Position numbers and translations under genes: made by a program. Positions 35,406 to 49,203 of a DNA stretch of 64,000 nt are shown here, one piece after another. The DNA is taken from NCBI GenBank assembly GCA_028681135.1, contig JAQUJC010000006.1, forward strand, positions 3,189-67,188. Reading direction: 5' to 3'. The stretch comes from Kiritimatiellia bacterium (GTDB lineage Bacteria; Verrucomicrobiota; Kiritimatiellia; CAIQIC01; Lenti-01). Position 1 is the first letter of the stretch. Each line of letters starts with the position of its first letter. The notes beneath the pieces were generated by a model. That model ran no database searches, was not told where the DNA came from, and saw only the letters and a program-made list of their open reading frames with translations.

Positions 35406-36674
35406 TTACTGATAAGGGCTGCGCTGGCCGAATTGTGGGCCGCGGTGAACGGCGGCATAGCTGAAATCCTTATCGAGCAGCTTGTGGCGGAAGCGGGATA
35501 CATCGACTTGATCGCGGATCAAGGCACCGTAAAAACCGGATTTCTGAATGTCGCCCACGAATACCATGCCCACGATACGCCCATCTTTTAGCACGAGCTT
35601 CTTGTAGATGGCATCCCCCTCGGACAGGCTGACCACTTCGACATTCTCCCGGCTATCGCTGTCCACCAGCACCTGACCAAGGGAAATCGCCGGAATCTGA
35701 TGAAATTGAACGGCATTCTGGATGCCGACAGCACCGGTATAGGGCCGAGTCCGGCCAGCCATGTTATAGGCGGCGTACTTGCCTTGCAACACGGCATTGA
35801 ACCAGGTGGCCGAGGGCATTCGCTTGCCGGTACTGACGTCATCGATTTCGATGGCGTCGCCGGCGGCAAAAATGTGGGGGGCCGAGGTTTGCAGCCGATT
35901 GCTCACCCGAATACCCCGTGCCGTTTCGAGACCGGCTTGAGCCGCCAAGCCCTTGTTGGGCTCGGTGCCGGTCGCCACGATGACGAAATCGGCCTGCACC
36001 TGGGGCTTTTCGGCGAGCATGACGCCGGTGGCGCGGTCAGACCCGTTAATCGCGGCTACGCTTTGGTTGAGAATGATCTGGACGCCCATCCGTTCCAGAT
36101 CCCGGTGGATAATGGTGGCGCCTTGGGCGTCGAGTTGGTTGGGCAGGATTTGGCCGCAGCGTTCGACTACGGTCACCTTGAGCCTCTTGCGTGCCAACGC
36201 ATAGGCGGCCTCCAGCCCGGCAAATCCTGCGCCGATGATCGCGACGGTTTGCGTCGGTGATGTTTGGGCGGTGATCGCCTGGGCATCTTTTAGGGAATGG
36301 AAGGTGCAGACGCCCTCGAGGTCGCAGCCCGGGATGGCGGGCAACCAGGGGCGGGACCCCGTGGCCAGCAGCAATTTATCGTAGACGACGGTTTCTCCGT
36401 TGTCACAGATCACCGTGTTGGAGCCGGGTCGAATGCTGGTGACCCGCACGCCGGAGGAATAGTGAATCCGGTGATCGGCCGCAAAATGATCGGTCTTGAA
36501 ATACAGGTCACGTTCCTGCAGGCGCCCGTCTGCGTAGCGTGAAATCAGGCAACGCGAATAGGGCGGTCCGGCCTCTTCGGTGAGGATGCGGATGTCTCCG
36601 TCCGGGTCGAGTTTCCGGAGGTCTTCGGCGGCTTGTGCGCCCGCCGCGCTGGCACCGATAATGACATAGGTCAT
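35406..36674 (-). CDS. FAD-dependent pyridine nucleotide-disulfide oxidoreductase, NAD(P)H:rubredoxin oxidoreductase (NorW/NROR-like)
   Basis: The start MTYVIIGASAAG carries the GxGxxG motif, and a second dinucleotide site VAIIGAGFAGLE is present. The true start at 36674 overlaps the cooF-like stop (ATGA). Confidence 0.8.
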   Translation of the reverse strand: MTYVIIGASAAGAQAAEDLRKLDPDGDIRILTEEAGPPYSRCLISRYADGRLQERDLYFKTDHFAADHRIHYSSGVRVTSIRPGSNTVICDNGETVVYDKLLLATGSRPWLPAIPGCDLEGVCTFHSLKDAQAITAQTSPTQTVAIIGAGFAGLEAAYALARKRLKVTVVERCGQILPNQLDAQGATIIHRDLERMGVQIILNQSVAAINGSDRATGVMLAEKPQVQADFVIVATGTEPNKGLAAQAGLETARGIRVSNRLQTSAPHIFAAGDAIEIDDVSTGKRMPSATWFNAVLQGKYAAYNMAGRTRPYTGAVGIQNAVQFHQIPAISLGQVLVDSDSRENVEVVSLSEGDAIYKKLVLKDGRIVGMVFVGDIQKSGFYGALIRDQVDVSRFRHKLLDKDFSYAAVHRGPQFGQRSPYQ

Positions 36675-37168
36675 GGTACATTTCCTTTGGCGTTGAAAAC
36701 TGGTTCGGGTACGTCGCTCACCGCCAGCACGTTCATGGGACAGGCGGCGACGCACGCCGGGGTGTCTAGGTTCGGGCACAGGTCACACTTCAAGGCCACA
36801 GCAAAGGAAGATTGATCTTCGCCGCCCGCGTCGTAGGACGGTGAAATAACACCATAGGGACAGGCCATGATGCACATCCAGCAACCTACGCACTGCTGCT
36901 CGTGGCCGACGTTGTTGACGATTCCTGTCTCGGGGTCTTTCTGCATGCAGCCAGCCATGCAGGCGCTGACGCACAGCGGCTCGACGCAATGGCGGCACAC
37001 CAGCGGCACGGGTCCGCGGTCGTATTCGATCAGAATGCGGCTCTTGGGCTCCGGCTTTTCCAGCGTGGCGAGGGCGGCGTTGCCCGCGCGAGAATGCGCG
37101 GCGATGCACGCTTGTTCGCATCGGCGGCAACCTGTGCAGTCTTCAGCTGTTACAGTCAGTTTTTTCAT
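36671..37168 (-). CDS. cooF: CooF-like 4Fe-4S ferredoxin (iron-sulfur electron-transfer subunit)
   Basis: Four Cys clusters are present (CTGCRRCEQAC, CRHCVEPLCVSAC, CVGCWMCIMACP, CDLCPNLDTPACVAACP). It lies immediately downstream of cooS. Confidence 0.8.
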   Translation of the reverse strand: MKKLTVTAEDCTGCRRCEQACIAAHSRAGNAALATLEKPEPKSRILIEYDRGPVPLVCRHCVEPLCVSACMAGCMQKDPETGIVNNVGHEQQCVGCWMCIMACPYGVISPSYDAGGEDQSSFAVALKCDLCPNLDTPACVAACPMNVLAVSDVPEPVFNAKGNVP

Positions 37169-37190
37169 TGCATGTCTCCTGGGGCTGGAT

Positions 37191-39080
37191 TCAGGACTTC
37201 TTGAGGCCGAGCGCTCCGCGCTTGGCGGCGATATGCGCTTCGATGGCGTCTGCGGCCTTCACGGGGTCCTGTTCAACAAAAACTCGGCCACCGGTCAGGC
37301 TTTCGACGTCCTGGGTCAGAATGCGGGTGACCAGCGGACTACCCATGATCGGTGGGGCCGGCGAGAGGTGCAGCGCCATCCCGAAGGCCACCGCTGTGAA
37401 CGCGTCCGCCACCGCCTTCTGTTCCATGTATTCGGGTGCCGATGCCACCACGGGCAGGTCCGGCACGTCCACGCCCAGCGCGTCTGCGACGGCCACGACG
37501 GTGGCGATGATCTTGCCGATGTCGGTGCAACTGCCGTAGGACAGGCAGGGCGGCACGCCCAGCGCGCCACACACTGAGGCGAGGCCGGGGCCCGCATGTT
37601 TGACCGAGTCGGTGCCCATGAGTCCCGCGTTTTGCATCGCGCTTGAGCAGCAGCCCGCGCCGATGACCAGGATATTGCGCTTGATCAGTTCACTCGCCAG
37701 CGTGGCGATATGCGCGCCCGACTCGCCTTCGCGGACCGTCGTGCACCCCACCAGGGCGGCAATGCCCTGCACCGAGCCGTTGGCAATCACGTCGATCAAC
37801 GGCTGGACGGTTCCGCCGAGCGCGCCGATTACGCTTTCCGTGGTGAAACCGGCAATGGCGGTTTGCTGGGTCGTGGGCACGTTGACGGCCCCGCGCTTTC
37901 CGAAGGCCGTGACAGCACGGTCGAGAATCGCCTCCGAAATGTCCACGGCCGTGTGCGGTTCGAATTCCAACCGTTCCACGCCGCCTTGCCGGATGACCTT
38001 GTCCGTGGAAATTAGGTGGGTGTGATATTTCGGAGCAAACTGTTCCGCGATGCTGGGCATGACGCAGTTATAGTCGAAGGCCAGCACGTCCACGGCTCCC
38101 GTGGCCAGCATCAATTCCTGCTGAATCCAGTTGCCGATCTGGCCGTAAAAGACGTCCTTGTATTCGGAGGCAATATTGAAGATTTGCTGGCCCTCGCACA
38201 GCGAGCCGTAGATTTTCAAGCCATTTTTGGCCCCGGCCTGCCGGGCCTTCTCCTGCCAGTTCTGCTTGCGCGCCGCCTCCAGAACCTTGATGGCCAGCAG
38301 GGGCTGGTGCCCGTGCATAATCACGTTGACGGCGTCCGGGTCGAGAACTCCGATATTGACCGAACCTTCGTTGGGCTTGGCCGTTCCGGTCAAGATTTCC
38401 TGCATGACGGTGATGCAGAATAGGCCGGCATATTCGTTGGCGATGCCCATGCGCAGGCAATGCGACAGCAGGTCTAGCACATCGTTGTTCACGTTGGTCA
38501 TCGTCTTCGACAGGCCGGTCGCTACTTCCGAGTTGGGACCGCCCGGAACGATGCCCAGCTTGCGCCAGACCGCAAGACGTTTCGGCGGTGCCAGGACGTC
38601 GACGAGCCGCATGGGGTCGTAGTCATTGCTGTTGATCTGCTGGATAAAGAGCGCACCGAGGTCACGCGCCATCTCCAGATCGGAGCCGCCGATGTCAAAC
38701 TGGGCCGCGAGTGCGCGCAATTTCTCCGGTTCCTTGATGGCATAGTCGGCCTGGCCTTCGCCGACAGCCTGCAGGGTGCGGGCCACATTGCGGGCATGGT
38801 AGACGTTGGCGGCGGTGCCCTGAGCACACTTGGCCAGCAGGTTGCGTGTCACGATCAGGTCGGCGGATGCGCCGCACACGCCGCGGTCGGCCTTGCGGGT
38901 GATCTGGCACGGACCGTCCGTGCACAGCGTGCAGCAGATGCCGAGTGTTCCAAAGGCGCATTGCGGCTGCTGGGCCGCGAACCGCTCATAGATCGTGGTC
39001 ATCCCATCCTTGCGGGCGACTTCATACATGTAATCGGACAGGCCGTCCGCCGGCTGGTTGCGATACTCAATGGTTTTCAT
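37191..39080 (-). CDS. cooS: anaerobic Ni,Fe carbon-monoxide dehydrogenase catalytic subunit
   Basis: The N-terminal cluster motifs are CAFGTLGICCTLCTDGPCQI and GVCGASAD. Its ~630 aa length, HGHQP, and the GCTTVREGESGAH and GAGCCS C-cluster regions are typical of CooS/CODH. Confidence 0.9.
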   Translation of the reverse strand: MKTIEYRNQPADGLSDYMYEVARKDGMTTIYERFAAQQPQCAFGTLGICCTLCTDGPCQITRKADRGVCGASADLIVTRNLLAKCAQGTAANVYHARNVARTLQAVGEGQADYAIKEPEKLRALAAQFDIGGSDLEMARDLGALFIQQINSNDYDPMRLVDVLAPPKRLAVWRKLGIVPGGPNSEVATGLSKTMTNVNNDVLDLLSHCLRMGIANEYAGLFCITVMQEILTGTAKPNEGSVNIGVLDPDAVNVIMHGHQPLLAIKVLEAARKQNWQEKARQAGAKNGLKIYGSLCEGQQIFNIASEYKDVFYGQIGNWIQQELMLATGAVDVLAFDYNCVMPSIAEQFAPKYHTHLISTDKVIRQGGVERLEFEPHTAVDISEAILDRAVTAFGKRGAVNVPTTQQTAIAGFTTESVIGALGGTVQPLIDVIANGSVQGIAALVGCTTVREGESGAHIATLASELIKRNILVIGAGCCSSAMQNAGLMGTDSVKHAGPGLASVCGALGVPPCLSYGSCTDIGKIIATVVAVADALGVDVPDLPVVASAPEYMEQKAVADAFTAVAFGMALHLSPAPPIMGSPLVTRILTQDVESLTGGRVFVEQDPVKAADAIEAHIAAKRGALGLKKS

Positions 39081-40903: not shown

Positions 40904-42154
40904 TCAATCTTGGCGGTCCAGCGCCTGGCGGAAATCCTCCACGATATCCCGGGCATTTTCGATGCCGACCGATACGCGGATGGTGTCGTCCGTGGCCCCG
41001 AGCCGCGCTTTCTCCTCGTCGGAGTAATCGGCGCAGATGGTGCTGGCCGGATGGATGACCAGCGTCTTGGCATCGCCGATGCTGGTGAGGTTCTTCGCCA
41101 GTTTCAGCCGGTTGATGATCCGGAAAGCGGCGGCCTTGTCGGCGACGCTGAATGTCAGCAATCCGCTGGCGCGCCCGCCATAGAGTCGGGTGATCATTGC
41201 CCGGTGAGGAGAGTCCTCCAGCCCCGGATAGTTCACCCGGGCCACGCGGGGATGGTCCTGCAGGAATCGGGCCAGTGCCAGGGCGTTCGAGCAATGCCGG
41301 TCCATGCGCAGCGCCAAGGTCTGGAGTCCTTCGGTCAGCAGAAAGGAATTGAACGGCGCGGCGCATCCGCCCAGGTCCCGGTGCACACGCTTGCGGGCCT
41401 GCGCCGTGAATGCAAAATTCCGAAATGTCTGGTGGAATGGCGCGAAGTGCGGAAACGCGGGACTGTTCCAGTCGAAGACACCGCGGTCGATGATGGCCCC
41501 GCCGATGGTCGTGCCGGTGCCGTTGATGTATTTGCTGGTGGAGTACGCCAGCAGGTCGGCCCCGAGGCTGACGCCGGTGGCCAGAACCGGCGAAGTGACC
41601 GTCGTGTCGATCATCAAGGGCAGGCCCGCATCGTGCGCGAGTTGCGCCAGCGCGGGCACATCGGGCACGTCGAGCTTCGGGTTGCCGATCGTTTCCACGA
41701 ACAGCAGCCGCGTGCGGTCGGTGATCGCCTTACGGAACCCATCCAGATCCAGCGGATCCACGAATCGCGCGCTGATGCCGTATTGGGGCAGTGTGTCCCG
41801 GAACAGCGAATAGGTGCCGCCGAAGAGCGAGGACGACGAAAGAATCTCGTCGCCCGCGCGCAGGATCGTCAGCGCCGCCGTGGAAATGGCCGCCATGCCG
41901 GAGGCCGTGGCGATGGCCGAGCCACCGCCTTCCAGAAGGGCCAGCCGTTTTTCCAAGGCCCCCGTGGTCGGATTGCCCATCCGGGTATAGACCGGTCCCG
42001 CGGCACGACCGCGAAACAGGTTCTCCAGTTCCTCCGCCGTGGGCTTGGCAAAGGAAGACGATTGCACGATGGGCACGGCGGTGGCACCCCCAGGGCCCGA
42101 TTCCAATCCGCCGTGGACTAGTTGGGTTTCGATCTGATATGGATTTTTACTCAT
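40904..42154 (-). CDS. metY: O-acetylhomoserine sulfhydrylase (PLP-dependent Cys/Met metabolism family)
   Basis: It has the PLP-lysine motif YSTSKYINGTG. ETIGNP..DV and the N-terminal QLVHGG are present. Its 416 aa length is typical. Confidence 0.85.
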   Translation of the reverse strand: MSKNPYQIETQLVHGGLESGPGGATAVPIVQSSSFAKPTAEELENLFRGRAAGPVYTRMGNPTTGALEKRLALLEGGGSAIATASGMAAISTAALTILRAGDEILSSSSLFGGTYSLFRDTLPQYGISARFVDPLDLDGFRKAITDRTRLLFVETIGNPKLDVPDVPALAQLAHDAGLPLMIDTTVTSPVLATGVSLGADLLAYSTSKYINGTGTTIGGAIIDRGVFDWNSPAFPHFAPFHQTFRNFAFTAQARKRVHRDLGGCAAPFNSFLLTEGLQTLALRMDRHCSNALALARFLQDHPRVARVNYPGLEDSPHRAMITRLYGGRASGLLTFSVADKAAAFRIINRLKLAKNLTSIGDAKTLVIHPASTICADYSDEEKARLGATDDTIRVSVGIENARDIVEDFRQALDRQD

Positions 42155-42374: not shown

Positions 42375-42785
42375 TCATTCCCCCGCCCCCGGCACGTCGA
42401 TGGGCTCGGGTGTGGAAACACCGTCGAAGATGCGGAACGATTTCAAATCGGGAGCCGGCCCGGCCAGCGACAGGATGACGGTCGAGACGCCCGGGGCCTT
42501 GGCCAGGCGAATATCCTCTGCCGACGGCCGTGCGGGCGTGTCGGGATGGGTGTGATAGACCGCCAGCATTTCCTTTCCCTTCACGCGCAATTCTTTCGCA
42601 ACCGCGAACTGCTCCCGGGGCTCCATCAAGAAGTGAACGCGGCTTTGGTCCACGTTGGTCATGGGATGGAACTCGCTGACGACGCCACCGTTTCCGCTCA
42701 GGATTCCGCAGGTTTCCAGCGGGAATCCTGCCCGTCCGTGGGCAATCAATGCGTCTAGGATGTTTTTGGGGATGACCAGCATCAC
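42375..42785 (-). CDS. JAMM/MPN+ metalloprotease (Mec+/HcyD-like, sulfur-carrier C-terminal processing)
   Basis: The catalytic E (PLETCGIL) and the HTHPDTPARPSAED motif (HxHx7Sx2D) are present. It is adjacent to the E1-like and ThiS-like genes. Confidence 0.8.
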   Translation of the reverse strand: MMLVIPKNILDALIAHGRAGFPLETCGILSGNGGVVSEFHPMTNVDQSRVHFLMEPREQFAVAKELRVKGKEMLAVYHTHPDTPARPSAEDIRLAKAPGVSTVILSLAGPAPDLKSFRIFDGVSTPEPIDVPGAGE

Positions 42786-43597
42786 GTTGTCTCCAACTCG
42801 CAGACGTTCAGGGCGTCAGAGTTGTCTTTCAATTCCGTGAGGGTCGGCTGGCTGCCGCAAACCGGGCACTTGGGATTGCGCTGGATGCGGATTTCGCGGA
42901 AGGTCAGGGAGGTCGCGTTATAGGTCAGCAGGCGCCCGGTTAGGAGGTCGCCAATGCCAAGCAGATATTTGATGGCCTCGGTGGCCTGAATCGTGCCGAT
43001 CACGCCGGGCAGCACGCCGATCACCCCGGCCTCAGAACAGGTGGGAATGGCGTCCTTGGGGGGAGGGGCCGAAAAAATGCAGCGGTAGCAGGCGGATTCG
43101 TGCGGCTTGACGGTCAGTGTCTGGCCGTCGAAGCGCAGAATGCCACCATGCGAATACGGCTTGTTGCCCAGGACGCAGGCGTCGTTGATCAAAAACTTGG
43201 TGGCGAAGTTATCGGTGCCGTCGATGATGAAGTCATAGTCGGCGATAAACCCGGCGATGTTCTCGGCGCTGATCCATTCCTGGTGAGGATGCACCGTCAC
43301 ATCCGGATTGATGGCGCGGACTTTTTCGGCGGCCGAGACCACCTTGGGCTTGCCGATGTCCGGAGTGAAGTGGATGACCTGCCGCTGCAGGTTGGTCACA
43401 TCGACCATGTCCGCGTCGGCGATGCCGAGGGTGCCGACGCCCGCCGCGCCGAGATAGAGTGCGATGGGCGCGCCGAGGCCGCCGGCACCGATAATCAGTA
43501 CACGCCCCGCCAGCAACTTCTCCTGGCCCTTGCCGCCGATGTCCTGCAGCAGAATGTGCCGGGAATAGCGCTCGATCTGGTCCGCACGCAAACTCAT
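42782..43597 (-). CDS. MoeB/ThiF/MoeZ-type E1-like adenylyltransferase (HcyF-like)
   Basis: The N-terminus reads RYSRHILL. The ATP-binding motif GAGGLGAP, the catalytic Cys region, and the C-terminal CxxC zinc motif (CPVCG) are present. There is no rhodanese domain. Confidence 0.9.
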   Translation of the reverse strand: MSLRADQIERYSRHILLQDIGGKGQEKLLAGRVLIIGAGGLGAPIALYLGAAGVGTLGIADADMVDVTNLQRQVIHFTPDIGKPKVVSAAEKVRAINPDVTVHPHQEWISAENIAGFIADYDFIIDGTDNFATKFLINDACVLGNKPYSHGGILRFDGQTLTVKPHESACYRCIFSAPPPKDAIPTCSEAGVIGVLPGVIGTIQATEAIKYLLGIGDLLTGRLLTYNATSLTFREIRIQRNPKCPVCGSQPTLTELKDNSDALNVCELETT

Positions 43598-43809
43598 TGG
43601 CCTCCACCCCCCATGAAGTACAGGAATTCCAGCACGTCGCCGTCCTTCACTTGCGTGGTGCCAAAGGCTTCGCGCTCGAGAATGGTGCCGTTGAGTTCCA
43701 CGGTCACGTAGAGCGGATCGGCCACCTTCAGCGTGACGAGGGTCTCGTCGATATTCAGCGATTCCGTTCCCGCAATTTCCCTGGTTTCTCCGTTGACGGT
43801 CAGTTTCAT
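43594..43809 (-). CDS. ThiS/MoaD-family sulfur carrier protein with C-terminal GG-GGQ extension (HcyS/CysO-like)
   Basis: It is 71 aa with a beta-grasp pattern. It ends ...EFLYFMGGGGQ, so a Gly-Gly is followed by extra residues as in JAMM-processed carriers. It overlaps its neighbours by 4 bp. Confidence 0.75.
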   Translation of the reverse strand: MKLTVNGETREIAGTESLNIDETLVTLKVADPLYVTVELNGTILEREAFGTTQVKDGDVLEFLYFMGGGGQ

Positions 43810-44048
43810 GCGGGGCTCCCTTCCCGTTTTTGGATGACCAGCTTGTGGACGTTGTCTTTCACATGGACGTTCTCCACCACCGTGAATCCTTGCTCAATGG
43901 CGGTCTTGGGCACATTGCTCAGCGGCTCGCCCTCGCAGAGCAGCACTTCCAGCGTGTCGCCAGCGATCAGTTTTTCCAATTCCAGTTTGGTCTTCACAAA
44001 CGTCATCGGGCAGCGATCCTGGGTGATGTCCAGATGGATTGTACTCAT
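43806..44048 (-). CDS. tusA: TusA-family sulfurtransferase
   Basis: It is 80 aa with the CPMT (CPxP) active-site motif near the N-terminus (DITQDRCPMTFVKTK). Confidence 0.8.
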   Translation of the reverse strand: MSTIHLDITQDRCPMTFVKTKLELEKLIAGDTLEVLLCEGEPLSNVPKTAIEQGFTVVENVHVKDNVHKLVIQKREGSPA

Positions 44049-44524
44049 ATGAATAACGTTTCCCCTCCGTGGGACAGCTCGAGGAATGTCGCGACGCCCA
44101 GCACGTCCCGGATTTCGGGAATGAAATCGCCTTTTTTCAGGCCGAGCACGTGCATCGCCATTTCGCAGGCGTAGAGGTTCACGCCCAGCGCGAGGGAGGC
44201 ATCGAACAGCTCGTTCAGCGTCGCCACCTTGCGGCTTTTCATCAGGCCGGTCATCAGCTTTGGACTCAGCCCGCCGAAGTTCAGTCGACTCAGCGGCAGG
44301 GTCTTCCGTCCGCCCATCATGAAATTGAACGCACGGTCCAGGAAGCCCTTGCCCAGAAAGCGCCGCCCAGTCTTTTGCTTGATGATGTTCAATCCCCAGA
44401 AGGTGAAGAAGATATTCACCTCATAGTTCACCGCCGCCGCCCCCGATGCCAGGGTGAAGGCCGCGATCGCTTTGTCGAACTCTCCGCTCATGCAAATCAA
44501 AGACATTTTTTTCGTATCCGCCAT
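44045..44524 (-). CDS. DsrE/DsrF-like family protein
   Basis: It is ~159 aa and paralogous to the C-terminal domain of the 44872-47304 fusion protein (VNIFFTFWGLNIIK vs VSIFFTFWGLSVLR; ACEMAMHVLG vs ACDMAMGVMG). An AAGGAG RBS is present. Confidence 0.75.
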   Translation of the reverse strand: MADTKKMSLICMSGEFDKAIAAFTLASGAAAVNYEVNIFFTFWGLNIIKQKTGRRFLGKGFLDRAFNFMMGGRKTLPLSRLNFGGLSPKLMTGLMKSRKVATLNELFDASLALGVNLYACEMAMHVLGLKKGDFIPEIRDVLGVATFLELSHGGETLFI

Positions 44525-44871
44525 TACGTGCTCCTTCTCAAATGATACCTTCCACAGATAAACTAGATAATAGGAGTTATCAAATTCATTTCGGAAATTG
44601 TTCTGCCATGACTACCGGATTGAATCCTGGGAAATGGGACGAAAAATAGCTTAACTGGTTGTTTGTCTGTTAAGATATATAGGCAACCCACTTTTGGCGC
44701 TCTTCGCCGAGGGTTGCGCAATATCGAGTTTTTTGTCCGTTCAGACCTTCGGATCGGGGTGGTCGGGATGCCTCACCGAGACGTCCGTCTGGCGGGTCCG
44801 GAGCGAGGGTTTGGCGTCCATTCCCAGCCGTGATATATTTCAACCCGCTTTTACAAAGGAAGAGGCCTCGA

Positions 44872-47304
44872 ATGAAAACAATCATAATTGGCGGTGTGGC
44901 GGGCGGAGCAAGTACGGCGGCGCGCCTGCGACGGCTGGACGAGCAGGCCGAAATTATCATGATCGAGCGCGGGCCGCACATTTCCTATGCCAACTGCGGG
45001 CTGCCCTATCATTTAGGGGGCATCATTCCGGAGCGCGATTGGCTGCTGGTGATGACGCCGGAGGATTTTCGCGGACGGTTCAATGTGGATGTGCGCGTGA
45101 ATCACGAAGTCGTGTCGATTGACCGCGCAAACAAGACGGTCGTTGTTCTAAATCGGCAGGATGGTACAGAGCGCACCGACCGCTACGATAAACTGGTCAT
45201 CGCCACCGGTTCCTCGCCCATGACGTTAAACCTGCCGGGGCTGGACCTGCCGGAGGTGCTGCCGCTGTGGACGCTGCAAGACATGGACCGCATTGCCCGC
45301 AAATTGGATGCGGGCGTGAAGAGCGTCATTGTGGTGGGTGGCGGGTTTGTGGGGATGGAATTGGCGGAGAGCCTGCGGCATCGCGGGCTTGCTGTGACCC
45401 TGCTGGAAATGGGCCACCAACTGCTCCCGACCATGGATAAGGAAATGAGTTCGCTGCTGGCCGAAGAATTGCGGCTGGCGGGCATTGTGGTGGAACTGGG
45501 CGCGGCCGTGTCCGCATTCGCGCCCGCGCAAGACCATTCGGTGCAAGCCACGGTCAAGGATGGCCGGTCCTGGACCGCAGACCTAGTTGTCATGTGCGTG
45601 GGCGTGACGCCCACGTCGGGGCTGGCCCAGGCCGCGGGACTCGAGACGGGACCCAAGGGGCATATTCTGACCAATGCCCAAATGTGCACATCCGATCCAG
45701 ATATCTATGCGCTGGGCGATGTGGTGGCGGTGACGGACCCAGTGTTTGGCGGCACCACGGCCGTCCCGCTGGCCGGGCCCGCCAATCGCCAGGGGCGTAT
45801 TGTGGCCGACAACATTATGGGCCGCGAACGCAGCTATGACGGGACCTTCGGGGCCTCGGTCGTCAAGGTGGGCCGCTTGACGGCTGCCAGTTGCGGACAT
45901 ACCGAGGCACGCCTCCTGGAATTGGAAAAACCCTATCGCAAGGTCTATCTGCACCCCGGGTCCCATGCCGGGTATTATCCGGGCGCTCGCGAGCTGCATA
46001 TCAAGTTGTTATATGGCGATGACGGCAAAATCTATGGCGGACAGGTGATCGGGGCCGAGGGGGCTGACAAGCGCGCCGACGTATTGGCCACCGCCATGCG
46101 CGCCGGGATGGATGTGCGCCAGATCGCCGAACTGGAGCTGTGTTATGCCCCCCCGTTTAGCTCGGCCAAGGACCCCATCAGCGTGGCGGGCATGATTGCC
46201 ACAAATGTGCTGGATGGGACAAGCCGGGTGGTCCAGGCCGATGATCTGCCCCCTGATGCACTCTTCCTGGATGTGCGTGAACCCGCCGAAGTCGACCTGG
46301 GCGCGCTGCCGGGGGCAGTGAATATTCCCCTGCACCAGTTGCGCGCGCGCGCCTTCGAATTGCCCAAAGATCAGATGATCGTGATCTATTGCCACCAGGG
46401 CTTGCGTGGCTATGTAGCTGAACGGATTCTGCGGCAACTGGGATATGACGTGGTCAACCTGACCGGCGGCTACCAGACCTGGAAGCAGTTCCAGCCCGAG
46501 CGCTGGATGCCCACCGACGACGAGATCGCCGTATCCCTCACCGGCAGCGAAGGGGGGCCGCGCCTGGAGTCCGACGAGACCGAACCGGCGCTCGTGGTCG
46601 ATGTGAGGGGATTGCAATGTCCGGGCCCCGTGGTCCGGATCAAAAAGGAAATCGATGCCCTGGCCGCGGGCGGGATGATCAAGGTGGTGGCGGCGCCGGG
46701 CTTCACCCCGGACTTGACCAACTGGGCCAAGAGCTGCGGCCACAAGGTCATCCGGCTGACGCAGAAGGACGACCGCTTGGAAGCCGTCCTGCGCAAAGGC
46801 ACCGCCGTGGCACCGGGGGCGGCGGCCGGCACGGCGACCGCGGGCGCGCTCGTGCTGTTCAGCAACGATCTCGACAAGGCCCTGGCGGCACTAATCATCG
46901 CCACGGGTATGGCCGCGGCGGGGATGCAGGTGAGTATCTTCTTTACCTTCTGGGGGCTCAGCGTGCTACGCAAGCATCCGGGGCCGCAGGTCCGGAAATC
47001 GCTCATCAACCGCATGTTCGGCTGGATGCTGCCGCAGGGCGCCCCAAAACTCGCGCTCTCCAAAATGCACATGGCCGGCATGGGCACCGCAATGATGAAA
47101 CATGTCATGAAGCAGCAGCATGTGGCCTCGCTGCCCGACATGATTCAGAGCGCCCGACAACTGGGCGTCAAATTCATTGCCTGCGACATGGCTATGGGCG
47201 TCATGGGCATTACAGAAGAAGAACTGATCGAGGTCGACGAAGTCGCCGGTGTCGCCACCTTTATCGCCCGCGCCAAGGAAAGCGGCCCGACGCTGTTTAT
47301 CTAA
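44872..47304 (+). CDS. four-domain fusion: CoA-disulfide/persulfide reductase (FAD pyridine nucleotide-disulfide oxidoreductase) - rhodanese - TusA-like - DsrE-like
   Basis: The N-terminus MKTIIIGGVAGGASTAARL has the CoADR active Cys (SYANCGLPY). The rhodanese domain has CHQGLRG. The TusA-like domain has LQCPGP (CPxP). The C-terminal ~170 aa is DsrE-like. The start at 44872 is preferred because an AAGGAAGAGG RBS precedes it. Confidence 0.85.
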   Translation: MKTIIIGGVAGGASTAARLRRLDEQAEIIMIERGPHISYANCGLPYHLGGIIPERDWLLVMTPEDFRGRFNVDVRVNHEVVSIDRANKTVVVLNRQDGTERTDRYDKLVIATGSSPMTLNLPGLDLPEVLPLWTLQDMDRIARKLDAGVKSVIVVGGGFVGMELAESLRHRGLAVTLLEMGHQLLPTMDKEMSSLLAEELRLAGIVVELGAAVSAFAPAQDHSVQATVKDGRSWTADLVVMCVGVTPTSGLAQAAGLETGPKGHILTNAQMCTSDPDIYALGDVVAVTDPVFGGTTAVPLAGPANRQGRIVADNIMGRERSYDGTFGASVVKVGRLTAASCGHTEARLLELEKPYRKVYLHPGSHAGYYPGARELHIKLLYGDDGKIYGGQVIGAEGADKRADVLATAMRAGMDVRQIAELELCYAPPFSSAKDPISVAGMIATNVLDGTSRVVQADDLPPDALFLDVREPAEVDLGALPGAVNIPLHQLRARAFELPKDQMIVIYCHQGLRGYVAERILRQLGYDVVNLTGGYQTWKQFQPERWMPTDDEIAVSLTGSEGGPRLESDETEPALVVDVRGLQCPGPVVRIKKEIDALAAGGMIKVVAAPGFTPDLTNWAKSCGHKVIRLTQKDDRLEAVLRKGTAVAPGAAAGTATAGALVLFSNDLDKALAALIIATGMAAAGMQVSIFFTFWGLSVLRKHPGPQVRKSLINRMFGWMLPQGAPKLALSKMHMAGMGTAMMKHVMKQQHVASLPDMIQSARQLGVKFIACDMAMGVMGITEEELIEVDEVAGVATFIARAKESGPTLFI

Positions 47305-47463
47305 CGGACGATTCAACCACGGATGGATGCCGATCAGTTGAGCAGGTAGGGCGACTTGGCCCAAGTCGCCGGGATCGGAAAGTGCGGCGTGAATCCGCTG
47401 AGAGTGGGGTTGAAAAGATTTTATTAAAAAGATAGGCTCACCAGACAGAAACCGGAGGTACAC

Positions 47464-48153
47464 ATGAAGATCATTGGAAGATGGACAATCGGGATATTGG
47501 TTCTGGGGCTGACATCGCTGGCGTGGGCTCAGGTGCCTGTCCCCGCGCTGCAATTCGAGCCGTTGCCCTACGCGTTTGACGCGCTGGAGCCCTTCATTGA
47601 TGCCTGGACCCTCGAGGTCCATTATGGCAAGCACCACCAAGGCTATTTCAATAAGCTGGTCGCGGCCGTGGCGGGCACAGACCTCGAAGGCCAGTCGCCA
47701 GAGGCCTATTTCGGGCGCATCAGTCAGTATCCCGACGCGGTACTTAACAATGCCGGCGGGCATTGGAATCATACCTTGTTCTGGAGGGTGATGTCGCCGG
47801 ATGGCGGGGGCATCCCTGAGGGCGACCTGGCGGCGGCGATCGATGCGGCCTTCGGATCCTTTGACGCATTCAAAAAGGAATTCAACCAGGCGGCGGCCAC
47901 ACGTTTTGCCAGTGGCTGGGCTTGGCTGTCCGTGGCGGAAGATGGCTCGCTGTTTGTGTCGTCCACTCCCAACCAGATCAACCCGCTGATGGATGTGGCC
48001 GCGCAGCGCGGGACGCCGATCCTGACCCTGGATGTCTGGGAACACGCCTATTACCTGAAGTATCAGAACTTGCGCGGCAGCTTTATCGAGGCCTTTTGGA
48101 ATATCATCAACTGGCCCGAGGTGGCCGCGCGCTACGCGGCGGCCAAGCCGTAG
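47464..48153 (+). CDS. sodB: Fe/Mn superoxide dismutase with N-terminal signal peptide (periplasmic/exported)
   Basis: The metal ligands and the DVWEHAYYL motif are present. HHQGYFNKL and AGGHWNH match the SOD family. The N-terminus MKIIGRWTIGILVLGLTSLAWAQ looks like a signal peptide. Confidence 0.9.
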   Translation: MKIIGRWTIGILVLGLTSLAWAQVPVPALQFEPLPYAFDALEPFIDAWTLEVHYGKHHQGYFNKLVAAVAGTDLEGQSPEAYFGRISQYPDAVLNNAGGHWNHTLFWRVMSPDGGGIPEGDLAAAIDAAFGSFDAFKKEFNQAAATRFASGWAWLSVAEDGSLFVSSTPNQINPLMDVAAQRGTPILTLDVWEHAYYLKYQNLRGSFIEAFWNIINWPEVAARYAAAKP

Positions 48154-49011: not shown

Positions 49012-49035
49012 GGGGACGCCTGAAGGGTGAAGGTT

Positions 49036-49155
49036 TTCCACAGTGTGGAAGAAAAGTTTCCACAGTGTGGAAAAACGGGGCGGATTTTTCCACGGTATGG
49101 AAAAGTGGTGGGCCAATCTTCCACGCTATGGAAAATAGTTTTCCACAGTGTGGAA
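49036..49155. promoter_or_regulatory. array of five 15-bp palindromic sites TTCCAC-N3-GTGGAA (3 perfect TTCCACAGTGTGGAA, 2 variants) at alternating 22/30-31 bp spacing
   Basis: The copies lie at 49036-49050, 49058-49072, 49088-49102, 49119-49133 and 49141-49155. All five therefore fall on one DNA face at ~2 and ~3 helical-turn steps. The array sits between the nrdR stop and the start of the 48289-49011 gene. Confidence 0.55.
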
Positions 49156-49203
49156 AACAGCGGTGGGACAACAGGCTGCGGCAGGCCGCGGGAGGGGGGG
49201 GGG

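Follow-up and report, generated by a model that had tools for sequence, protein, structure and literature searches.

A four-domain CoADR–rhodanese–TusA–DsrE2-like fusion gene in a Kiritimatiellia bacterium and its possible role in sulfane-sulfur reduction

The stretch of DNA considered here, referred to as the window, comprises 64,000 nucleotides from the genome assembly of a Kiritimatiellia bacterium (GCA_028681135.1, contig JAQUJC010000006.1, positions 3,189 to 67,188 of the forward strand). Our subject is a gene of the + strand that lies in a single uninterrupted open reading frame (ORF), 44830..47304, with no internal stop, and encodes a flavoprotein reductase core followed by rhodanese, TusA and DsrE2-like domains. 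The gene and its parts are as follows, with residues counted from the ATG at 44872.

44872..47304, + strand: coding sequence of the four-domain fusion, 810 amino acids (aa) plus a TAA stop, with its ATG at 44872
44875..46167, + strand: flavoprotein reductase core of the CoADR/Npsr type, formed by Pyr_redox_2 (residues 2–299, Pfam E = 2.6e-64) and the dimerization domain Pyr_redox_dim (residues 331–432, Pfam E = 2.9e-11); the Cys42 codon is at 44995–44997
46255..46488, + strand: rhodanese domain (residues 462–539, Pfam E = 2.5e-16); Cys507, codon 46390–46392, lies in the loop CHQGLRG
46489..46593, + strand: linker 1 (residues 540–574), acidic and predicted to be flexible
46594..46797, + strand: TusA domain (residues 575–642, Pfam E = 1e-15); Cys583 of CPGP has its codon at 46618–46620
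46798..46845, + strand: linker 2 (residues 643–658), rich in Ala and Gly
46846..47301, + strand: DsrE2-like domain (residues 659–810; Pfam DrsE_2 at 659–809, E = 1.6e-51); the Cys771 codon is at 47182–47184

Pfam supports every domain of the CoADR–rhodanese–TusA–DsrE order proposed in the first-pass annotation, an earlier reading made from the letters and ORF translations of the window. In the hidden Markov model comparison that places the boundaries all five Pfam domains score far above their cut-offs, Pyr_redox is also above its own, and the motifs quoted earlier are all present. The cysteines lie in SYANC42GLPY, C507HQGLRG, LQC583PGP and FIAC771DMAM. Two Rossmann GxGxxG motifs, for flavin adenine dinucleotide (FAD) and NAD(P)H, are found at residues 5–12 (IIGGVAGG) and 154–161 (VVGGGFVG). 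The core has a single redox cysteine, Cys42 in SYANCGLPY, which aligns with the cysteine of SFANCGLPY in Npsr of Shewanella loihica. The Cys507 loop CHQGLR aligns with CQVGLR of the Npsr rhodanese (FCQVGLRG) and has the six-residue form C-x-x-G-x-R. The TusA domain scores 57.7 bits, above its cut-off of 28.6 (PF01206), and keeps the cysteine of the C-P-x-P motif, while the C-terminal domain reaches 174.8 bits where 25 are required (DrsE_2, PF13686) and matches PDB entry 3PNX with E = 1.6e-27. Neither this domain (77 bits) nor a free-standing DsrE2-like protein encoded nearby (80.4 bits) reaches the 210-bit cut-off of the DsrE2 equivalog NF047629; judged by these profile scores, both are DsrE2-like and not equivalogs of the curated family. 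Inside the DrsE_2 domain there is a Met-rich loop, LSKMHMAGMGTAMMKHVMK (46984–47085, residues 705–738), which is modelled with low confidence and is kept as a Met-rich segment in the family consensus.

Sequence matches in the PDB are led by 3NTA, the S. loihica Npsr, with E = 1.9e-153 over residues 2–538. Next are the CoADR-RHD of Bacillus anthracis (BaCoADR-RHD, 3ICR; 6.6e-145), Enterococcus faecalis CoAPR (EfCoAPR, 8A56; 1.2e-137) and the Npsr of Archaeoglobus fulgidus, also called NoxA-3 (6PFZ; 1.3e-97). The four proteins are colinear with residues 1–540 at 36–47% identity, and this part of the fusion is structurally equivalent to solved persulfide reductases. An AlphaFold2 model of the fusion, with a mean predicted local distance difference test score (pLDDT) of 78.6, gave target template-modelling scores of 0.84–0.88 in Foldseek to Npsr, BaCoADR-RHD, EfCoAPR and 6PFZ, an entry named NAD-dependent persulfide reductase. 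None of the solved chains among the Foldseek matches reaches past the rhodanese domain. In linker 1 residues 544–569, and in linker 2 residues 646–655, have pLDDT below 50. Across a set of 90 sequences that spans more than ten phyla and consists of the window protein and 89 fetched loci, linker 1 has 23–71 aa and linker 2 has 14–37 aa. Given the low pLDDT and the variable length, we read both linkers as flexible tethers.

Two signals upstream of the coding sequence bear on the choice of start codon.

44811..44839, + strand: promoter-like site of the fusion gene, TTGGCG-17 nt-(TG)TATATT, found by a consensus scan
44856..44865, + strand: ribosome-binding site AAGGAAGAGG, read from the sequence, which ends 6 nt 5' of the ATG at 44872

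The length of 824 aa first given for the protein counts from a GTG codon at 44830, whereas 44872–47304 gives 810 aa. This GTG falls within the promoter-like site, and when the site is aligned with four Kiritimatiellia relatives its TTGGC and GCGTG-TA columns do not vary. Among the full-length homologues listed, lengths are about 800–825 aa, with 808–812 aa in the close ones (74–100% identical). The overlap with the conserved promoter-like site, the spacing of AAGGAAGAGG and the lengths of the homologues rule out the GTG, and we therefore take the ATG at 44872 to be the real start.

A word-indexed search over 5.8 billion proteins returned a 100% identical protein of 810 aa (P0001) along with over 100 homologues that are colinear and 55–84% identical, and all full-length matches carry the same Pfam set. 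Many homologues are 74–84% identical to the window protein. Their source names, where given, are metagenome-assembled genomes (MAGs) of Kiritimatiellia, Verrucomicrobia and Opitutae; the names among the matches as a whole also include Lentisphaerae. HMMER, run exhaustively on the representatives of clusters at 50% identity, added at least 50 further clusters that match about residues 1–810 at 34–52% identity, some of the distant ones being labelled Deltaproteobacteria or Bacillota. The same search found shorter forms, CoADR-RHD of about 550–580 aa and CoADR-RHD-TusA of about 640–666 aa, and the existence of these two- and three-part proteins indicates stepwise domain accretion.

One genome per GTDB species was scanned, with at least 600 matches in more than ten phyla. 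Among the best 80 of these, nearly all start at residues 1–24 and run to residue 810. The taxa of the best 80 include Verrucomicrobiota, Victivallaceae, Planctomycetota, Anaerolineae, Treponema, Rectinema, Omnitrophota and Cloacimonadota, many Bacillota (Clostridium, Paenibacillus, Enterococcus, Erysipelothrix), Bacteroides, Prevotella and Porphyromonas, and also Actinomycetota, Betaproteobacteria, Myxococcales and Gastranaerophilales. On the evidence of these matches the four-domain fusion is not rare and is found in hundreds of bacterial species.

The cysteines are conserved throughout. In the 90-sequence set C507 and C583 are present in every member and C42 and C771 in 89 of the 90 each, the sole exception for C771 being an incomplete contig. 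C507, C583 and C771 are also invariant in 37 more divergent sequences, with identities as low as 33%. An assembly artefact or a frameshift is ruled out by the continuous ORF, the identical 810-aa protein and the hundreds of colinear homologues. The fusion reported in the first-pass annotation is thus genuine, with no stop or frameshift between its domains; the C-terminal domains keep their conserved cysteines and the same architecture recurs in other genomes.

One gene lies directly downstream of the fusion.

47464..48153, + strand: Fe/Mn superoxide dismutase (SOD; Pfam), with a signal-peptide-like N-terminus, MKIIGRWTIGILVLGLTSLAWAQ

An Fe/Mn SOD is found directly downstream of the fusion in all five close relatives (about 78–83% identity). 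Between the two genes of the window is a gap of 159 bp (47305–47463), in which a perfect 10-bp hairpin, GGCGACTTGG-C-CCAAGTCGCC, is not followed by a T-run. Further along, the close relatives have oxidative pentose-phosphate genes and three genes that the window retains: a conserved gene of unknown function, NrdR and a sigma-70 gene. Upstream and on the opposite strand, three of the five have a divergent module of Rrf2, ferredoxin and hybrid-cluster protein (Hcp). The fusion gene usually stands alone in more distant genomes. Its commonest neighbour there is an ArsR-type repressor of ~100 aa, present in 20 of the 89 loci, frequently in the same orientation and at a distance of some tens of bases at most. 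Many of these winged-helix regulators (L003 10421–10759, L042, L070 and 17 others) have a conserved cysteine, which belongs either to 'CNVS', close to helix 3, or to 'ILNC', close to the C-terminus, and it is possible from such motifs that they are persulfide- or thiol-sensing repressors. A MarR gene is directly downstream of the fusion in Bacteroides and Porphyromonas, and a thioredoxin gene precedes it in one locus. The SOD, Rrf2–ferredoxin–Hcp and ArsR/MarR neighbours point to a role in stress.

Between the NrdR gene and the conserved unknown gene of the window, five near-perfect palindromes, TTTCCACAGTGTGGAAA, are clustered at 49030–49160. Their half-site, TTTTCCACA, resembles the DnaA-box consensus TTATCCACA. 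A step in GC skew, from ~0.05 to ~0.2, is seen near 48 kb, and in one relative (L006) dnaA–dnaN lies ~9 kb upstream of the fusion gene. The palindrome cluster may be an origin-related or a regulatory array.

Upstream of the fusion, and transcribed away from it, is an operon of six genes assigned from Pfam or NCBIfam.

44045..44524, − strand: free-standing DsrE2-like protein of 159 aa, the first gene of the divergent operon (Pfam DrsE_2, E = 2.3e-44)
43806..44048, − strand: TusA (Pfam/NCBIfam)
43594..43809, − strand: ThiS with a GGGGQ end (Pfam/NCBIfam)
42782..43597, − strand: MoeB/ThiF of 271 aa (Pfam/NCBIfam)
42375..42785, − strand: JAB protease (Pfam/NCBIfam)
40904..42154, − strand: MetY, O-acetylhomoserine sulfhydrylase (Pfam/NCBIfam)

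The layout looks like one for protein-thiocarboxylate-dependent homocysteine synthesis, with the DsrE2-like protein and TusA as putative sulfur donors of its own. ThiF is the sole Pfam match of the MoeB protein, which has no rhodanese domain. The JAB protease would trim the C-terminus of ThiS. A precedent is the MetY of Wolinella succinogenes, which uses a thiocarboxylated carrier protein (PMC8191291 and its reference 23). The literature searched does not describe DsrE2–TusA as delivering sulfur to a ThiS-type carrier in assimilation.

The fused DsrE domain and the free DsrE2 are 39% identical over 153 aa (E = 3e-33), close to, yet below, the ~45% that had been given for their conserved blocks. 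The fused and free TusA can hardly be aligned (25%, E = 0.036). Proteins of Trichlorobacter ammonificans (Geobacterales) and of Elusimicrobia and Verrucomicrobiota MAGs share 75% identity with the free DsrE2, and these relatives are always followed by TusA within Cys/Met clusters (L090, L091). At L091, which has an 86% identical relative, the order DsrE2–TusA–ThiS–ThiF–JAB is repeated with two Cys_Met_Meta_PP genes nearby. The free DsrE2 has 39% identity to the fused domain and 75% to orthologues of other phyla, a contrast that rules out its recent origin by duplication of the fused domain. Given this cross-phylum identity and the Cys/Met clusters, we regard free DsrE2–TusA as an independent assimilatory module.

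ThiS, MoeB, JAB, MetY and free DsrE2 or TusA stand beside the fusion in none of the 89 other loci, and a conserved linkage of the fusion with the operon is ruled out. The functional weight that the first-pass annotation had placed on the divergent DsrE and TusA paralogues is unsupported or overstated. In relatives the slot of the operon is taken by a pullulanase-like (CBM_48/alpha-amylase) gene or by the Rrf2–ferredoxin–Hcp module. The region 35406–39080 (− strand) of the window encodes a Pyr_redox_2/Rubredoxin_C reductase, a 165-aa ORF (36671–37168) and a 629-aa Prismane-family protein. The 165-aa ORF holds the position of a 165-aa ferredoxin in one relative (L007). Since the gene order of this region matches that of L007, the sulfur-carrier operon appears to lie in a variable slot between conserved flanks.

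The intergenic region that separates the fusion from the free DsrE2 gene measures 347 bp, in agreement with the distance of about 350 bp reported earlier, and its description as AT-rich also stands, with 48% GC against 60.7% for the whole window. It contains a single copy of TTCCACAG, at 44550, which had been taken for a half-site of the palindrome family. This 8-mer occurs four times in the whole window, where 1.6 copies are expected by chance, and 11 of 100 shuffles had at least four copies. The count is at chance level; the lone copy therefore carries no weight and was rejected as a regulatory half-site. The only inverted repeat of the region is a weak AT-rich 10-mer at 44646–44678. No riboswitch or other RNA was found in the 347 bp by the Rfam search, including a SAM riboswitch for the Met operon, and no regulatory motif common to the two divergent units was found there. 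A sub-threshold Rfam match to V_AS7, a Vibrio antisense RNA, lies at 44891–45000 (− strand), antisense to the N-terminal coding region of the fusion. At 41 bits, where the gathering score is 90, it was not accepted as an RNA gene, and it may reflect conservation of the coding sequence.

We consider it probable, at roughly 60%, that the fusion is a cytoplasmic NADH/FAD sulfane-sulfur reductase of the Npsr/CoADR-RHD/CoAPR type, with a tethered relay, that acts in reactive-sulfur and thiol homeostasis. The 36–47% identity to such enzymes suggests that the protein binds coenzyme A (CoA) and carries out NAD(P)H-dependent reduction of persulfide or polysulfide. The second Rossmann strand ends in a Glu, in TLLEMG, that corresponds to the Glu of TLLELA in the NADH-dependent Npsr and suggests a preference for NADH. 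The two active-site cysteines of EfCoAPR are ~27 Å apart and are bridged by CoA, and the rhodanese cysteine alone is persulfidated in vivo (PMC9405070). A relay from rhodanese (Rhd) to TusA to DsrE has been established in Allochromatium vinosum, and the rhd-tusA-dsrE2 gene order of sulfur oxidizers mirrors the domain order of the fusion (PMC11094781).

In the mechanism we propose, the rhodanese end of the reductase would be extended by the TusA and DsrE2-like domains on flexible tethers. Sulfane sulfur, in the form of low-molecular-weight or protein persulfides, polysulfide or species derived from elemental sulfur (S0), would be captured as a persulfide on Cys771, Cys583 or Cys507 and relayed to Cys507. 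Tightly bound CoA would then pick the sulfur up as a swinging arm and carry it to Cys42/FAD, to be reduced to H2S with electrons from NADH. We infer both this direction of flow and the physiological substrate. Such an enzyme would dispose of reactive sulfane sulfur and restore reduced thiols under sulfur or oxidative stress, with the side benefit of a sink for NADH when S0 is available.

A number of points weigh against this assignment. The established relays run from Rhd to TusA to DsrE, away from the rhodanese and opposite to the need of a reductase, and proteins of the DsrE family are typically trimers, so that their quaternary arrangement conflicts with the dimers of CoADRs (PMC11094781). 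Three distant family members of the divergent 37-sequence set (P0158, P0186, which is L008 7001–9460, and P0199) have lost C42 together with the SxANCGLPY motif and keep the three carrier cysteines. Since only the redox cysteine is lost, the carrier module can matter without reduction, and these proteins may be pseudo-reductase carrier scaffolds. No MarR or ArsR regulator adjoins the fusion in the window, which ties the gene to no particular stress. The literature searched contains no enzymatic assay of any four-domain member. Nor does the protein reach the NCBIfam cut-off for CoA-disulfide reductase. Its best NCBIfam match is to that family, TIGR03385 (E = 1.5e-129). This match favours a plain CoA-disulfide or general thiol-disulfide reductase, to which the added domains would contribute only as regulatory or redox-sensing modules, and so does the diamide-sensitive mutant of Bacteroides fragilis, for which the authors prefer a role in CoA-based thiol balance (PMC6158253). 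We consider such an enzyme improbable. The score of 432.6 bits falls below the equivalog cut-off of 578.8, on which ground the fusion should not be named a CoA-disulfide reductase; its closest solved relatives are persulfide reductases and not CoADRs; and the strict retention of three sulfurtransferase cysteines over more than ten phyla argues for a catalytic role.

The fusion might instead serve fermentation, by dumping excess NADH on polysulfide derived from S0, with the carrier domains gathering and threading sulfur chains; we view this as a tentative and rather unlikely explanation. Npsr of Shewanella, the closest solved homologue, is described as an NADH-dependent persulfide/polysulfide reductase in papers that PMC9405070 and PMC9431562 cite, and a protein with the same domains, Pcar_0429, has been proposed as a terminal S0 reductase (PMC3543383). 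S0 is reduced during sugar fermentation by Kiritimatiella glycovorans and Pontiella spp., which have no recognized sulfur reductase genes, and the authors describe S0 reduction in the Kiritimatiellales as 'unclear how and why' (PMC7356697). The homologues with 74–84% identity come, where sources are named, from MAGs of Kiritimatiellia, Verrucomicrobia and Opitutae, and relatives have oxidative pentose-phosphate genes nearby. The cultured S0-reducing strains were, however, not found among the best 80 of the at least 600 matches. Members of the family are found in aerobic and facultative organisms as well (Paenibacillus, Actinotalea, Cryobacterium, Enterococcus), in which a sink of S0 is unlikely, the adjacent repressors and SOD point to stress control and not to energy metabolism, and S0 reduction brought no growth benefit to other fermenters capable of it (PMC7356697). 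We are similarly doubtful of a more elaborate version, in which the fusion would be the missing S0/polysulfide reductase of the Kiritimatiellales, a DsrE–TusA–rhodanese conveyor feeding the CoA arm, and would here possibly also be coupled, through the divergent promoter region, to thiocarboxylate-dependent homocysteine synthesis.

A biosynthetic function can also be imagined, the reductase making or editing persulfides that leave by way of TusA and DsrE and, in the window, feed the divergent homocysteine pathway. This would agree with the known direction of transfer, Rhd to TusA to DsrE (PMC11094781), with the divergence of the two units from a common 347-bp region, with a MoeB that lacks a rhodanese domain and would need an external sulfur donor, and with the family members that keep the carriers and lose the redox cysteine. 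Against it, the operon genes adjoin the fusion in none of the 89 loci, five relatives ~80% identical among them, and in relatives a pullulanase-like gene or the Rrf2–ferredoxin–Hcp module takes their slot. Free DsrE2–TusA travels with Cys/Met genes with no fusion nearby, so that the operon already has carriers of its own, and the intergenic region offers no shared regulatory motif. We think a mobilizer of this kind a poor candidate, and retain the sulfane-sulfur reductase with a tethered relay as our assignment.

For the window itself the outcome is mainly a correct annotation and not a discovery. The family is of broader interest in that it spans gut Bacteroides, Prevotella, Porphyromonas, Clostridia and Enterococcus as well as bacteria of the Planctomycetes–Verrucomicrobia–Chlamydiae group and Actinomycetota, with genetic links to thiol and oxidative stress. 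Knowledge of the activity would allow annotation of the many homologues that now carry generic labels such as 'FAD-dependent oxidoreductase' or 'pyridine nucleotide-disulfide oxidoreductase', and would show whether a complete Rhd–TusA–DsrE relay can run towards a reductase. Reduction of S0 by the fusion, if true, could explain how Kiritimatiellales carry out fermentative S0 reduction without a recognized reductase.

The fusion is a further member of a known and widespread four-domain family. The same four domains were described in 2012 for Pcar_0429 of Pelobacter carbinolicus, for which a relay and NADH-driven reduction were proposed in the role of an S0 reductase (PMC3543383), and in 2018 for BF638R_0572 of B. 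fragilis (PMC6158253). The novelty implied by the first-pass annotation is therefore not upheld. The persulfide relay on a single polypeptide that it put forward is a reasonable reading, with all cysteines kept and flexible linkers, and is an idea already published for Pcar_0429. The domain coordinates of BF638R_0572 (Rhd 462–540, TusA 589–657, DrsE_2 671–825; PMC6158253) are near-identical to those found here (462–539, 575–642 and 659–809). BF638R_0572 shares an operon with the MarR-type repressor BmoR, is derepressed ~50-fold in a bmoR mutant and, when deleted, leaves the cells more sensitive to diamide (PMC6158253). Loci of Bacteroides and Porphyromonas match the window protein over residues 1–810 and 2–810 at 43–44% identity and have a MarR gene directly downstream, like the BF638R_0572–bmoR operon. 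We infer orthology with BF638R_0572 and Pcar_0429 by way of these loci, the published proteins being compared by description. The window gene differs in that it belongs to a Kiritimatiellia-like genome, has no adjacent MarR or ArsR gene, is followed by a SOD and stands back-to-back with a sulfur-carrier homocysteine operon.

Compared with Npsr, CoADR-RHD and CoAPR, the fusion shares the SxANC redox motif and the rhodanese cysteine in a six-residue loop. Those enzymes end after the rhodanese domain, at ~550–590 aa, whereas the fusion adds ~270 residues that comprise the TusA and DsrE2-like domains and two flexible linkers. The added domains belong to the same carrier families, in the same order and with the same active cysteines, including that of CPxP, as Rhd_2599–TusA–DsrE2/DsrEFH of A. 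vinosum and DsrE3A–TusA of Metallosphaera cuprina (PMC11094781, PMC4175335). In those two organisms the carriers are separate proteins that serve oxidative sulfur metabolism through rDsr or sHdr, whereas here they are fused to a reductase, and the annotated part of the window (28–51 kb) yielded no Dsr or sHdr genes. The flow of sulfur through the fusion is probably the reverse of that in the A. vinosum and M. cuprina relays.

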